64,000 nt of DNA, from the NCBI GenBank assembly GCA_963674595.2, contig CAXXFV010000016.1, positions 384,001 through 448,000 of the forward strand, read 5' to 3'. The translations under genes were made by a program, and so were the position numbers. Below the pieces are notes generated by a model. It searched no databases. It was not told the origin of the DNA and was given only the letters and a program-made list of their open reading frames with translations. This DNA is from a bacterium (GTDB taxonomy: Bacteria > Zhuqueibacterota > Zhuqueibacteria > Residuimicrobiales > Krinioviventaceae). This document shows positions 8,195-10,873 of this stretch, in pieces. Position 1 is the stretch's first letter. Every line of letters begins with the position of its first letter.

Positions 8195-8250
8195 AAAGAA
8201 GATGTAAATAAACGGTAAGGTGTTAATTTCATCAAAAAGGTTAATTACGG

Positions 8251-8670
8251 ATGATGCAAGAAGGTAATACGCCCGAAAGAAGAAAAGCAATTCTTGTTGG
8301 TACAATTGATTATCGTATCATTGAAGACTTGAACCGAAGGTTGAATCGAGATGATTTTGATGTTCGGTTTGTCCAAAAAGGTGTTCATTTGTTAACAGAA
8401 ATTTTGGACAATGATATTGATCTGCTTATCCTGGATTTGGATTTAGCTGGGGTTATGGGAGTGGAAATGTTGCCGGTTATTAGGCGGCTGCGTCCACGAT
8501 TGCCCGTTATTTTATTGTCAGATGATTTTACAAGTAAAATCAGACAAACGGCTGCTGAACTGGGAATAACCTATCAGGCCTTCAAATCAGTCAATTCAAC
8601 TGATACAGACGAAATTGTTTCAGCAACAGAAAAGATTATCGAGAAAAGAACTCTTGCTCAGGTCCATTAG
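8251..8670 (+). CDS. Stand-alone receiver (CheY-like) domain protein, atypical
   Basis: DLLILDLDL...GVEML...PRLPVILLS. The N-terminal acidic pair and the KP motif are degenerate. Confidence 0.8.
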   Translation: MMQEGNTPERRKAILVGTIDYRIIEDLNRRLNRDDFDVRFVQKGVHLLTEILDNDIDLLILDLDLAGVMGVEMLPVIRRLRPRLPVILLSDDFTSKIRQTAAELGITYQAFKSVNSTDTDEIVSATEKIIEKRTLAQVH

Positions 8671-8679
8671 ATATAGTTT

Positions 8680-8781
8680 TAAAAAGACAAAGCTACCAGC
8701 CGACTCGCCCAAGTCATCAAAACTGGTAGCTTTTGGGCCACGCAAGAAGAATACAGTGCAAGCCTTTTTCTCTTTTGCGGC
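8680..8781 (-). ncRNA. Candidate ~100-nt small RNA (motif copy 1) with its own promoter and terminator
   Basis: Minus-strand TTGACA(8816-8811)-17 nt-TATATT(8793-8788). An 11-bp stem (8689-8699/8723-8733) encloses GACT-TGGGCG-AGTC and is followed on the minus strand by a T-rich tail (TTTGTCTTTTT). Confidence 0.55.
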
Positions 8782-8787
8782 ATTAAA

Positions 8788-8836
8788 AATATAGTTATTT
8801 ATAAACAATTTGTCAACTTAAAACAACAAATTGTTT
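8788..8836 (-). promoter_or_regulatory. Sigma70-like promoter overlapped by a perfect 11-bp inverted repeat
   Basis: TTGACA-N17-TATATT on the minus strand; AAACAATTTGT (8803-8813) / ACAAATTGTTT (8826-8836). Confidence 0.6.
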
Positions 8837-9002
8837 GTTAATACAACATGGGCATTTTAACGACCTCCTGAATACTGGAAGTTTTGTTCAAGCTTTCCTG
8901 GTTTTTTCTCCCCATCAATAAATTTTTATCAACCCTATATAACTTTGTGAATTTGGTAATTAGCGGAATGAGCTGAATCGACGCTTTTTACACAATAGTA
9001 AT

Positions 9003-9139
9003 TGGTGGAAAAGTGTGGCATTTGTGTCCATTGTGTGGGACGTGGTAAATTTCTTTATTTACAGTAGCTTAGGTATTTGTTGTTTCTTCTGATATACATT
9101 TGTTAATGAATTTTTTGTAATTGTTTCAAATTTGGGGCA
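9003..9139. promoter_or_regulatory. Candidate enhancer (UAS) sites for the NtrC-family activator
   Basis: TGGTGGA-aaag-TGTGGCA (9003), TGTCCAT-tgtg-TGGGACG (9025) and TGTTTCA-aatt-TGGGGCA (9122), 140-270 bp upstream of the sigma54 promoter. Confidence 0.45.
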
Positions 9140-9274
9140 TAAGATGGAAATAAAAAAATTATTTACTAAAAAAATTATTTACTAAAAATTTGTAATTAAA
9201 AAACAATAGTTTACGAGCTGTTGAAACGGACTGAAATTGTCGGTTTTGTGTTTTATAACAAAAAATTGAAATTT

Positions 9275-9290
9275 TGGCACAAACTCTGCT
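9275..9290 (+). promoter_or_regulatory. Sigma54 -24/-12 promoter of the polysaccharide/surface-protein cluster
   Basis: TGGCACaaactCTGCT with exact GG-N10-GC spacing; an NtrC-family gene lies nearby. Confidence 0.7.
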
Positions 9291-9314
9291 AAATAGTAGG
9301 CAGTAAGAGATGAT

Positions 9315-9437
9315 AATGTGATAAAGCTGACTCGCCCAAGTCTTCAGGTTTTATCACATTTGGGTCATGTAAGAAGAATAATTGTTAGGCGGTTATAGTT
9401 TACCTCGAAAATATGCTTACCATTTATTCCTCTTTAC
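9315..9437 (+). ncRNA. Structured 5' leader motif (copy 2)
   Basis: Stem AATGTGATAAA/TTTATCACATT encloses GACT-CGCCCA-AGTC and is followed by TGGGTCATGTAAGAAGAATA. Same core as 8689-8753 but with a different stem sequence. Confidence 0.6.
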
Positions 9438-9571
9438 TAATCAAATTGTAATCAATCGGTAACCCAAAAACTTTGTTTAGCGGGTTCCCTCACGCGCCTG
9501 TCAAAATCAGTGAAATAAACAGGCATAAATTAACTCGTAGCACTCTTGTGCCGGGTGGAGGATGATGAATA

Positions 9572-10873
9572 GTGAGGAAAGAGAGAGGATTTAAAATGAA
9601 ATTTAAACTTAATTTAGCATCAAAGATACCTGCATTGATACTTGGCTTGTGCAACAATGTTAAAAGCTATCTTTTCATTTTTTTGGTTTTAAGCATAACC
9701 TCTCAGAATGTTTATTCTGGTGCCATTAAGGCAAATTGGGATGCCAATACAGAACCAGATCTAAAAGGTTATAAGCTCTATTATGGTACAGTTCCTTCAG
9801 ATTATTTGAATTGGGAAAGTGTAGACGTTGGTAATGTAAACAGTTATCTTGTTGGGAATTTGGACGAAAATGTAACTTATTATTTTGTTGTAACGGCTTA
9901 TGATTCTTCTGGAAATGAAAGTGCTCCCTCTGATGAAGTAAGTGCTCTGGTCACAGGACCGCAAGCCACTGCATCTGTGAGTGGAGATAGTATTATTGTA
10001 AGATGGACTTTTATTTTAGATGCAGACAGTTATGAAATTTTTCAGGGAACAGAACCTTTCTTTACACCGGGAACACCTGTTGCAACTATAACAGAAAACA
10101 GTTGGATTGATACTTCTTTCCCGCAGGTACCTGACACGGCTGCTTATTATATTGTTAAAGCTATGTCGGGTGGTTCAGTATCTCATACATTTAATACAAT
10201 CGGCGCTTATAACGTTCCCATTAAATATGGTAATAACCTTGTTTCGTTACCATTTGCACAGACAGATTCATCTTTGTGTGGTGTATTGGGAACACAGTTA
10301 CATGGAGCTACAAACGCCGTTCAGGCTGATAAAGTTTATATACGTGAAAATGATGCTTATTCGCAAGCATGGTTGGTTGAAGGAACAACCAGTCCTCTTG
10401 AAGGGAAATGGGTAACACCGGCTGGTGATGGTGAATCCACACTTAAAATTAATCCATCAGAATCATTTTGGATCATTAGTCGCTCAATAGAAGGGGACTC
10501 TCTATTTACAATGACCGGAACAGTAAATCCTGATTCTAATCGTGCTGTTTCACTTGTGCCCGGACCGAATTTTGTCTCTGTCCCTTATCCTGTAGAAGTC
10601 TCTTTAACCCAGGGCGGGCTTAATGAAGAAGGTGTGATCGAAGGTAGTTATTACCTGGCCGGATCTGATAAAGTTATGATGTGGACTGGAAGTAAATATG
10701 AAATTGCCTGGTTGGTTGACGGCACAAATACATCATGGGATGGAAAGTGGGTCAATGAAAGAGGCGACAGCGAAACCACAATGACTTTAAAACCAGGAAG
10801 AGGCTATATCATTTGGATTAAAAACGAAGGCCCTGCCAGAACCTGGAAGTTTCCAAATCCAAAGTATAATTGA
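9572..10873 (+). CDS. Secreted FN3-domain surface protein (start probably 9596)
   Basis: Signal-like N-terminus; FN3 segment WDANTEPDLKGYKLYYG...YYFVVTAYDSSGNES; two internal repeats (W..LVEGT...GKWV...G...LK). Confidence 0.8.
   Translation: MRKERGFKMKFKLNLASKIPALILGLCNNVKSYLFIFLVLSITSQNVYSGAIKANWDANTEPDLKGYKLYYGTVPSDYLNWESVDVGNVNSYLVGNLDENVTYYFVVTAYDSSGNESAPSDEVSALVTGPQATASVSGDSIIVRWTFILDADSYEIFQGTEPFFTPGTPVATITENSWIDTSFPQVPDTAAYYIVKAMSGGSVSHTFNTIGAYNVPIKYGNNLVSLPFAQTDSSLCGVLGTQLHGATNAVQADKVYIRENDAYSQAWLVEGTTSPLEGKWVTPAGDGESTLKINPSESFWIISRSIEGDSLFTMTGTVNPDSNRAVSLVPGPNFVSVPYPVEVSLTQGGLNEEGVIEGSYYLAGSDKVMMWTGSKYEIAWLVDGTNTSWDGKWVNERGDSETTMTLKPGRGYIIWIKNEGPARTWKFPNPKYN

Follow-up and report, generated by a model that had tools for sequence, protein, structure and literature searches.

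Does a small hairpin motif that occurs just twice in a bacterial genome, once beside a two-component regulator operon and once upstream of genes for surface proteins and exopolysaccharide (EPS), connect the two places, and if so by which molecule? We addressed this question in the window, by which we mean the whole 64-kb stretch of DNA that was analysed and whose numbering is used throughout. The two copies, written on the plus strand, are composed as follows:

Copy 1: stem AAAGCTACCAG (8689-8699) / CTGGTAGCTTT (8723-8733); core GACTCGCCCAAGTC (8702-8715); tail TGGGCCACGCAAGAAGAATA (8734-8753)
Copy 2: stem AATGTGATAAA (9315-9325) / TTTATCACATT (9350-9360); core (9329-9342); tail TGGGTCATGTAAGAAGAATA (9361-9380)

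Rarity and novelty of the motif

The coordinates and sequences of both copies, described earlier from the letters of the DNA (the sequence-only reading), were all present in the window. With up to two mismatches, the core occurs twice there against 0.11 occurrences expected, a number reached in 0 of 100 shuffles, and with 0 or 1 mismatch the 14-mer is found exactly twice in the whole 6.6-Mb genome. A covariance model built from both copies and run on the genome, a search that the sequence-only reading had proposed, returned only these two at E<=10. Core scan and covariance model both give two genomic copies, not the many that the same reading had named as evidence against itself, and the motif is therefore not a dispersed repeat; an element of the REP or MITE kind was also rejected because the site, between a receiver gene and a divergent gene for an envelope or secreted protein, is conserved. 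None of the 4227 models of Rfam 15, riboswitches and the eps-associated RNA included, matched the 64-kb window at its gathering score, and the eight sub-threshold matches within 8500-9700 (best E 2-10) were far under the gathering scores, in agreement with the earlier statement that no named family could be recognised. On the plus strand of the DNA the two copies form a direct repeat, copy 1 being read from the minus strand.

A predicted small RNA gene at copy 1

Copy 1 (8681-8781) is very likely a minus-strand small RNA (sRNA) gene of about 100 nt, as predicted from the following features and their conservation:

8251..8670, plus strand: receiver-only response regulator gene (Pfam Response_reg, 1.1e-12), the last of an HK-HK-sigma54 activator-RR cluster
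8788..8816, minus strand: sRNA promoter of sigma-70 type, with -35 TTGACA (8816-8811), a 17-nt spacer and -10 TATATT (8793-8788)
8681..8781, minus strand: predicted sRNA transcript, about 101 nt, consisting of SL1, a single-stranded linker, the terminator hairpin SL2 and a U-tail
8737..8781, minus strand: SL1 of the sRNA; its 3' arm and the adjoining linker (8734-8753) form the seed, which is complementary to the leader tail
8689..8733, minus strand: SL2 of the sRNA, an intrinsic terminator stem with an apical mini-hairpin formed by the core (8702-8715), GACUUGGGCGAGUC in the sRNA sense

A promoter scan of the minus strand recovered TTGACA/17/TATATT at 8816->8788 with 11/12 matches, as the sequence-only reading had it, and the hexamers are conserved in 15 homologues; the TTG of the -35 and the TA of the -10 are invariant and the spacer is variable in these 15 aligned homologues, and likewise in the 27 rows of a larger alignment. 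The RNA, whose ends are set by the positions of promoter and terminator, folds into two hairpins (-35.4 kcal/mol), an architecture found in every homologue that was folded. Directly after SL2 comes GUCUUUUU (8688-8681), and a T-run follows the SL2 stem in the sRNA-sense alignments of 15 homologues and of 27 rows, the U-tail being weaker in members of the genus g7. Promoter, terminator and U-tail are thus all conserved in the 15 aligned homologues. The strand is indicated by G.U pairs in the consensus SL2 that would be A.C on the plus strand (UG in 15/15, 6/15 and 3/15; GU in 3/15 and 4/15), and the sRNA sense is the more stable one for 12 of the 13 distinct sRNA-type hairpins; for L278, a locus from another order, the values are -25.0 kcal/mol in the sRNA sense and -16.1 in the opposite sense. 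Copy 1 has the marks of an independent sRNA gene, namely a conserved promoter of its own and an intrinsic terminator (stem and U-run) on the same strand, and the earlier proposal of a minus-strand RNA of about 100 nt is borne out in promoter, hairpins, terminator and strand. We infer that this RNA is made in the cell.

A search for Hfq (PF17209) gave 0 matches in this 97.56%-complete genome, with positive controls in 5 of 14 genomes, which fits a structure-driven antisense RNA. The only RNA run yielded three 151-nt contigs (8227-8377, 8758-8908 and 9590-9740) at a depth of about 2 and without strand, too sparse for expression, and the contig at 8758-8908 covers the promoter rather than the sRNA. 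As for the other sequence runs, X2 is probably DNA, and X3 and X4 contain the entire stretch as DNA.

Copy 2 in the leader of a sigma-54-type operon

Copy 2 stands in a different setting, made up of these features:

9275..9289, plus strand: sigma-54-type promoter TGGCACaaactCTGC (TGGCAC-N5-CTGC), with a predicted start at about 9300
9315..9360, plus strand: leader hairpin, in which P1 (9315-9325/9350-9360) encloses P2 (GACU/AGUC) and the loop CGCCCA (core 9329-9342), from folds
9361..9380, plus strand: purine-rich leader tail, 5' arm of the long-range helix H2 and proposed second pairing site of the sRNA
9417..9439, plus strand: pyrimidine-rich 3' arm of H2, with the anti-Shine-Dalgarno-like UUCCUCUUU, from the fold
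9583..9598, plus strand: purine-rich ribosome-binding region and ATG (9596), from the sequence, with the frame checked
9596..10873, plus strand: first gene of the operon, encoding an fn3-domain protein of 425 aa (Pfam and NCBIfam matches)

With the sigma-54-like element at 9275-9289, copy 2 begins about 15 nt past the predicted start, where the sequence-only reading had placed it, and in 8 of the 12 leaders scanned the core is preceded, at a distance of 54-68 nt, by a sigma-54 -24-like element. The fn3 gene is followed by a gene for a T9SS-tail protein and then by Wza/Wzz/PEP-CTERM-like EPS genes (Pfam, NCBIfam); no leader peptide is evident in the leader itself. The loop CGCCCA, which sits within GACUCGCCCAAGUC, is complementary to the apical loop UGGGCG of SL2. 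A downstream pyrimidine partner had been suggested for the purine tail, and it was found in single-sequence folds of both copies and in the consensus fold of eight related leaders, where H2 is present and the equivalent 3' arm shows some double changes. Only 7 of 11 leader hairpins are more stable in the mRNA sense; the leader hairpin of L278 gives -14.0 kcal/mol (mRNA sense) against -8.3 (opposite sense).

Stems diverge, core and tail co-vary

That the enclosing stems differ in sequence and nevertheless pair had been noted for the two copies, and the same holds among relatives: in 23 related sequences 11/11 pairs of P1 are changed on both sides, and 95.6% of the cells of this stem are paired, a value reached in 0 of 500 shuffles for an alignment that was fitted to the model and so favours structure. 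The hairpin arms of the two copies in the window have completely diverged with pairing retained. The two copies of a single genome have unrelated P1 arms next to a core and tail that are kept, a pattern that a contiguous gene-conversion tract cannot give, and in at least nine genomes unrelated P1 arms go together with alike core and tail, which argues for selection on the core and tail segments.

The sRNA seed is complementary to the leader tail (9361-9380) with three G.U pairs, and tails differ between genera and match within a genome. The genus g7 has a 13-nt variant of the core, which its sRNA shares with the leader next to it, and L278 shows the same pattern of core co-variation between sRNA and leader. 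In the genus g17, GACTCGGCAAAGTC occurs in the sRNA and in two further leaders per genome; these copies are alike along their full length, so the shared variants there may reflect recent duplication. Seed-tail duplexes, calculated over fixed windows, gave -45.2 kcal/mol for cognate against -29.6 kcal/mol for non-cognate pairs (0 of 20000 permutations as good), the cognate partner ranking first in five of nine rows and not being the best in four; whole-length sRNA-leader duplex energies did not separate cognate from non-cognate pairs. Over the 26 columns after P1, the transitions from copy 1 to leader were wobble-compatible in 18 cases and incompatible in 3, a bias that falls to 64 vs 41 (p=0.03) over all locally alignable columns, the counts being phylogenetically non-independent. 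Once the cost of unfolding both RNAs is deducted, cofolding in the window brings a net gain of -21.2 kcal/mol, compared with -4.4 +/- 2.3 for shuffled sRNA, and in 7/7 cognate pairs the gain exceeds that of all 30 shuffles.

Duplex energies, the core variants of g7 and L278 and the transitions, with the broad count as the weaker part, point to complementarity kept by co-variation of sRNA and target. The sequence-only reading had matched the loop of the sRNA hairpin to that of the sigma-54 leader, and this match is strengthened by the finding that core and tail co-vary between sRNA and cognate leader and the stems diverge. We consider direct pairing of the sRNA with the leader likely on these comparisons, and the two RNAs would presumably bind in the cell.

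Distribution and genomic context

Matches to the sRNA gene model (R2) occur in 22 of the 43 genomes from the order and in 26 of the 151 that were sampled across the phylum, and the combination of promoter, two-hairpin transcript and U-tailed terminator is conserved over four families of the order and beyond. In the window, receiver gene and sRNA gene converge, with about 10 nt between the stop codon of the former and the 3' end of the latter, and a receiver-only response regulator gene also ends just before the sRNA in L122, L207 and L218. No leader copy was found near the sRNA loci L122/L138, L205, L206, L207, L208, L214-L218, L276 and L277; in loci of this kind the sRNA still stands between a receiver gene and a divergent PEGA/DUF5683 gene. 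Pattern searches for leaders with the core variant of the respective lineage found none in the genomes G034, G021, G026 and G020 and in four g12 genomes, and one-mismatch matches of the core in the g12 genomes fall in coding sequence. Since many sRNA loci are without a leader copy nearby, it is not a general rule of the family that the sRNA pairs with a leader bearing the repeat. The leaders L117 and L121, for their part, have no sRNA on the same contig.

An exact-pattern scan of genome contigs gave 76 stretches, only seven loci of which match the model R1 at E<1e-3, with scores and coordinates equal to those of genomes already found. The same scan of metagenome contigs gave at least 100 stretches, 80 of them resolved to loci and 11 of these matching R1; by inspection at least six are of sRNA type (L122 = L138) and at least four of leader type (L117 = L149). 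Two metagenome loci (L101 and L163) were false R1 matches on inspection, and L012 and L013, likewise false, had been removed when R1 was first aligned. A family-level search returned nothing beyond the 19 genomes already covered.

Alternative readings of the two copies

The sequence-only reading had itself offered another explanation, a cis-acting RNA element present twice on the plus strand (a riboswitch or an antitermination element), to which a protein-binding element, a DNA site or a mobile repeat may be added. The same hairpin is indeed formed on the plus strand by both copies, copy 2 does lie in a 5' leader and the core is a small palindrome. Copy 1, however, has no plus-strand gene downstream (no ORF of at least 50 aa between 8794 and 9572), a minus-strand promoter and a U-tailed terminator are conserved on either side of it, and its G.U pairs fit the minus strand only; the lack of an Rfam match and the mere two genomic copies also speak against an element or repeat of this kind, which we regard as very improbable.

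More weight is due to the idea that the sRNA gene is real and that its likeness to the leader records shared duplication ancestry only, its work being done elsewhere: on other mRNAs, on ribosome-binding sites of neighbouring genes, or at the 3' end of the convergent regulator operon, with which it would interfere or pair in antisense. The many family members that have no repeat-bearing leader nearby or detectable would suit it, as would the position between receiver gene and divergent PEGA/DUF5683 gene that leader-less loci retain; judged by sequence, any 3' UTR that arises from read-through of the regulator operon would be perfectly complementary to the sRNA, and CUCC-like anti-Shine-Dalgarno strings are frequent in the seeds. 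Shared ancestry alone is at odds with the unrelated P1 arms beside alike core and tail in at least nine genomes, with the advantage of cognate over non-cognate pairs, and with the core variants that accompany different P1 arms in g7 and L278, and we think it improbable.

Proposed mechanism

The reading that we prefer, and taken as a whole hold to be reasonably probable, is that the minus-strand sRNA pairs with the leader of the sigma-54-driven fn3/T9SS/EPS operon. With its two copies transcribed from opposite strands, the repeat would make the sRNA antisense to the leader in two places set apart from each other, the first between the apical loop UGGGCG of the terminator hairpin and the leader loop CGCCCA, the second between the 3' arm of SL1 with the linker and the purine tail of the leader. 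The loop-loop contact would nucleate binding and pairing would then extend to the tail, stripping it out of helix H2 with the pyrimidine-rich anti-Shine-Dalgarno-like stretch; either this released stretch or the CUCC-like seed of the sRNA itself may occlude the ribosome-binding site of the first gene. The outcome would be post-transcriptional repression of the surface-protein/EPS operon, with the sign of regulation following from the model, and the sRNA may in this way affect EPS or surface-protein expression. When the sRNA sites were blocked in silico in 11 leaders, the predicted accessibility of the ribosome-binding site went down in only seven, was equal in two and went up in two; repression through H2 and the anti-Shine-Dalgarno stretch is put forward tentatively, as one possible route.

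The same sRNA/leader pair could instead act as Inc RNA does on repZ, the leader loop CGCCCA and the UGGGY next to P1 on its 3' side forming an activating pseudoknot and the sRNA loop competing for the leader loop. In the window the loop is complementary to UGGGY, 8 of the 13 leaders examined carry a GGGU-type tail after P1 (among them the window, L005, L006, L117, L121, L211 and L212), and the antisense RNA of IncI1/IncB plasmids is reported to prevent a pseudoknot needed for RepZ translation (PMC8053102). The tails of L003/L137, L008, L009, L010 and L143 are of other kinds (GGCC, GAGUC, GGACC), complementary to their own sRNA and not to the loop; in g7 the loop is shorter by one C and the tail is still GGG; and the pseudoknot would be local, with the ribosome-binding site about 230 nt farther downstream. 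The leader loop is nearly invariant across relatives, and the consensus folds were made with RNAalifold, whose model leaves pseudoknots outside. The pseudoknot between loop and TGGGY, as drawn in the sequence-only reading, was not confirmed by comparison, tails in several leaders not being loop-complementary, and an Inc RNA-like step that blocks it, not consistently conserved by this analysis, has in our view a small chance of being right.

Returning to pairing at loop and tail, a wider and rather unlikely extension would be a phylum-wide class of 'repeat-born' antisense RNAs, in which a leader segment is duplicated, an opposite-strand promoter is gained and the hairpin becomes a terminator, the resulting Hfq-independent sRNA co-evolving with a single leader or a set of leaders that belong to envelope, matrix or sugar-transport operons. 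The sRNA gene lies directly against the 3' end of the operon for the sigma-54 two-component regulators, and transcripts reading through from there could therefore act as a perfect sponge or hinder the synthesis of the sRNA; the dosage of the activator would thereby be wired directly to relief of post-transcriptional repression.

Significance and comparison with known systems

The sRNA and leader, as predicted here, are a previously undescribed regulator pair that extends across an uncultured bacterial phylum; a literature search on regulatory RNAs of KSB1 or Caldithrix returned no relevant work. If the preferred reading is true, it provides this phylum with a well-defined sRNA-target pair at a switch of surface-protein and exopolysaccharide production, and with an unusually clear natural record of a trans-acting sRNA born from a duplicate of its target leader and then co-evolving with it, the stems drifting freely and loop and tail being held complementary. 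The natural variants of g7, g17 and L278 are ready-made compensatory mutants for reporter work.

In the par locus of pAD1, the direct repeats DRa and DRb are read in opposite directions, and the pairing between them keeps ribosomes from binding; RNA I (the fst mRNA) and RNA II converge and share one terminator, and the target is a toxin peptide (PMC4147584). Like RNA I and RNA II as described there, the two RNAs considered here owe their complementarity to direct repeats read in opposite directions. Unlike that convergent arrangement with its shared terminator, sRNA and target are here divergent and about 530 bp apart, with a terminator that the sRNA does not share, and in place of a toxin peptide the target is a predicted sigma-54-driven fn3/T9SS/EPS operon whose first gene encodes the 425-aa fn3 protein. 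There is no sequence likeness between par and the pair described here. Binding in par is said to begin at the terminator hairpin loops, and a start at the loop of the terminator hairpin is what we also propose.

Inc RNA of IncI1/IncB plasmids (ColIb-P9) is a short antisense RNA that binds the hairpin loop of the repZ leader and controls translation; it is encoded opposite its own target, in cis, inhibits a leader peptide and blocks a pseudoknot reaching the ribosome-binding region (PMC8053102). The sRNA resembles it, so described, as a short antisense RNA with a loop complementary to the loop of a leader hairpin, to which we propose that it binds. It differs from that cis-encoded RNA in that its gene (8681-8781) and its target site (9315-9380) are separate, diverged direct repeats, the sRNA being trans-encoded, and from the repZ control outlined there in that the leader shows no evident leader peptide and the putative pseudoknot lacks consistent conservation.

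Hairpin loops also serve trans-acting sRNAs such as OxyS, which kisses fhlA, and RNAIII with its C-rich loops, and some sRNAs of this kind act without Hfq. OxyS and RNAIII-like sRNAs pair by short seeds and, to our knowledge, are not diverged duplicates of the leaders that they target. The sRNA described here is like them chromosomal and trans-encoded and presents its complementary sequence in a loop; unlike them, it would pair through two modules, one of 14 nt and the other of about 20 nt, that are kept complementary across the phylum.

The repeat and its surroundings

Two copies of a motif of about 70 nt lie 627 bp apart in the window, both in + strand orientation. Their 14-nt core, GACTCGCCCAAGTC (8702-8715 and 9329-9342), is identical, and a 20-nt tail is common to both save for three C-to-T changes. 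Around the core, each copy has an 11-bp stem (P1) that pairs perfectly, although the two stems show no sequence relationship. The core was observed twice in the window against 0.11 expected (two mismatches or fewer), and only twice in the whole genome (6.6 Mb, 38.8% G+C) with one mismatch allowed, which confirms the duplicated structured motif noticed from the sequence alone. A covariance model built from the two copies (R1) found just these two in the genome and, in related genomes, recovered paired copies separated by 500-770 bp; the Rfam search with the repeat region matched no family. The features of the region are as follows.

Upstream of the copies: two histidine kinases and an NtrC-type sigma-54 activator
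Upstream of the copies, ending at 8670: receiver-only response regulator
8681-8781, minus strand: copy 1, predicted small RNA (sRNA) gene
9275-9289: sigma-54-type box TGGCACaaactCTGC
9315-9380: copy 2, in the operon leader
Downstream of copy 2: fn3 protein, type IX secretion tail protein and Wza/Wzz/tyrosine-kinase/PEP-CTERM-like exopolysaccharide genes

Copy 1 as a predicted small RNA gene

At every locus, the first copy has the reverse complement of TTGACA-N17-TATAnT on its 3' side on the + strand and an A-run on its 5' side; its minus-strand reading gives a promoter, a predicted RNA some 85-100 nt long and a hairpin with a U-run on its 3' side. The promoter scan scored the window promoter (8816 to 8788, minus strand) at 11 of 12 matches, and alignment of 15 distinct homologues showed an invariant -35 TTG and -10 TA with a variable spacer, and a conserved terminator stem and T-run. 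All homologues fold into two hairpins, a variable SL1 and the terminator SL2, whose apical mini-hairpin carries the core. The G.U pairs of the consensus SL2 become A.C mismatches when read on the + strand, and for 12 of the 13 distinct hairpins the sRNA sense gives the more stable fold. These features support the view, already taken in the sequence-only reading with its TTGACA-N17-TATATT promoter, that copy 1 is a minus-strand gene encoding a predicted small RNA.

A model of this gene (R2) matched 22 of 43 genomes in the order (10/18 in family f1, 7/14 in f2, 1/1 in f3, 3/8 in f4 and 0/1 in f5) and 26 of 151 in the phylum sample, the genome of the window included. By their record titles, the matching public contigs are KSB1, Calditrichota or, for some, evidently mislabelled MAGs. 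Among the homologous loci (L numbers), a receiver-only regulator gene also ends directly before the sRNA in L122, L207 and L218, and a PEGA/DUF5683 gene lies on its promoter side in L207, L210, L215 and L218.

At L209 (genome G039), two tandem sRNA-type copies, in + sense at about 1392 and 1500, have covarying terminator stems, ACCGCCAGT and ACTGCCAGT; judged from sequence, the sRNA gene has been duplicated locally here. L211/L212 (genus g7) have a strong hairpin and T-run on the + strand, AGACUGCCUUCC...GGAAGGCAGUCUUUUU, between the sRNA promoter and the sigma-54 box, about 130 nt past the former. The only RNA-library contig near the sRNA matches 8758-8908 with two differences and covers the promoter of the sRNA and sequence upstream of it; it may derive from carried-over DNA, from + strand read-through transcription or from a related strain.

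Copy 2 as a leader element

Given the sigma-54-type box, copy 2 begins about 15 nt into the operon leader, where it had been placed from the sequence alone. Such a box lies 54-68 nt 5' of the core in 8 of the 12 leaders scanned; L003, L004, L137 and L121 had no pattern match within 140 nt, and by eye a box is seen farther upstream in L003 and a variant box in L121. P1 differs in sequence in nearly every genome with its pairing kept: in an alignment fitted to the model, all 11 pairs were changed on both sides and 95.6% of cells were paired, a result equalled by none of 500 shuffles and in line with the covariation proposed for the enclosing stems. The consensus fold of eight short leaders contains P1 and the inner mini-hairpin P2; it also pairs the purine tail with pyrimidine-rich sequence farther downstream, as the long-range helix H2, and leaves the ribosome-binding site open.

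A second conserved element (9481-9530 in the window; also L003, L004, L137, L117 and L121) consists of GGTTCCCTCACRCRYCTGTC followed by a hairpin, in relatives CUGUCGGGG...CCCCGACAG. It is confined to long leaders, occurs once in the genome of the window and matched no family in Rfam. The A/T-rich direct repeat AAAAATTATTTACTAAAAA occurs twice in tandem at about 9152-9190, some 100 nt before the sigma-54 box; it resembles ATTATTTAC repeats in L003 and L121 and may bind a bending protein or an activator. The NtrC-type regulator may use TGTGGCATTTGTGTCCATTGTGTGGGACGTGG (about 9016-9047) as its upstream activator site; similar strings (CCATTTGTGGGACAT, TGTCCAT...GTGGGA) are present between genes in L003, L009 and L010.

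Complementarity between the two RNAs

Opposite-strand reading of the repeat makes the sRNA complementary to the leader in two places, core and tail, and four lines of observation point to selection on this complementarity. Within one genome the P1 arms, lying between core and tail, are unrelated and core and tail are nevertheless kept; a single gene-conversion tract cannot give such a mosaic. Tails differ among genera and match inside each genome. In genus g7 the sRNA and the adjacent leader have the same 13-nt core with different P1 arms. In genus g17, GACTCGGCAAAGTC is found in the sRNA and, per genome, in two more leaders unlinked to it, which suggests a small regulon: one (L221/L225/L237) precedes an operon for a polysaccharide deacetylase and a glycosyltransferase, the other (L226/L230/L232) the gene of a PPC/fn3-like secreted protein; the shared variant may also reflect recent duplication, since those copies are alike throughout. 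L278 (genome G152), from another order, shows the same pattern of a shared variant before a membrane-protein gene, with both hairpins strand-asymmetric; in this region (about 1470-1760) the leader copy begins some 50 nt past the -35 box of the sRNA, and the multi-pass membrane protein 3' of it is sugar transporter-like by eye.

The seed (SL1 3' arm and linker) forms duplexes with the tail at a mean of -45.2 kcal/mol for cognate against -29.6 for non-cognate partners (9 x 9 matrix); the cognate partner ranked first in five of nine rows and second in two more, and none of 20000 permutations did as well. From copy 1 to leader, over the 26 columns after P1, 18 transitions preserve G.U pairing to the antisense RNA and 3 do not (64 against 41 in a broader automatic count), counts that are non-independent across relatives. 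With both RNAs unfolded first, the net cofold gain in the window was -21.2 kcal/mol against -4.4 +/- 2.3 for shuffled sRNA, and exceeded all 30 shuffles in 7/7 cognate pairs. The loop complementarity first noticed is supported at the core and extends to the tail, co-varying within genomes.

Many sRNA loci have no repeat-bearing leader nearby, genome searches in several lineages found none, and two leaders have no sRNA on the same contig. The loop pseudoknot suggested earlier is possible in the window but is not kept in L003/L137, L008, L009, L010 and L143, where the tail tracks the cognate sRNA and not the pseudoknot; the loss of a loop base in g7 with an unchanged tail also bears against it.

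Proposed mechanism

In the best-supported picture, the sRNA terminator loop would contact the P2 loop, CGCCCA, and pairing would extend into the tail, displacing it from H2; in a weaker last step, the freed anti-Shine-Dalgarno-like stretch might then base-pair to the ribosome-binding site. In L009, L010 and L143 this stretch adjoins GCUCACC, the exact complement of the ribosome-binding-site GGUGAGC, and blocking the sRNA sites in folds lowered predicted ribosome-binding-site accessibility in 7 of 11 leaders, left it the same in 2 and raised it in 2. Alternatively, a CUCC-like sRNA seed would occlude the ribosome-binding site directly. No Hfq gene was found in the genome.

Comparison with known systems

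Conservation, strand and co-variation support the sRNA/leader pair put forward in the sequence-only reading, its regulatory effect being putative, and support a new sRNA family of the antisense kind with loop-loop recognition, the evolutionary origin of which is unusually legible. Literature searches turned up no work on small RNAs from KSB1 or Caldithrix. The closest principle is that of the pAD1 par locus, where direct repeats transcribed in opposite directions pair with each other and the ribosome is blocked; unlike the present pair, the par genes are convergent, have a common terminator and code for a toxin (PMC4147584). Inc RNA of the repZ system also recognises a loop in a leader, but is cis-encoded and works via a leader peptide and a pseudoknot (PMC8053102).
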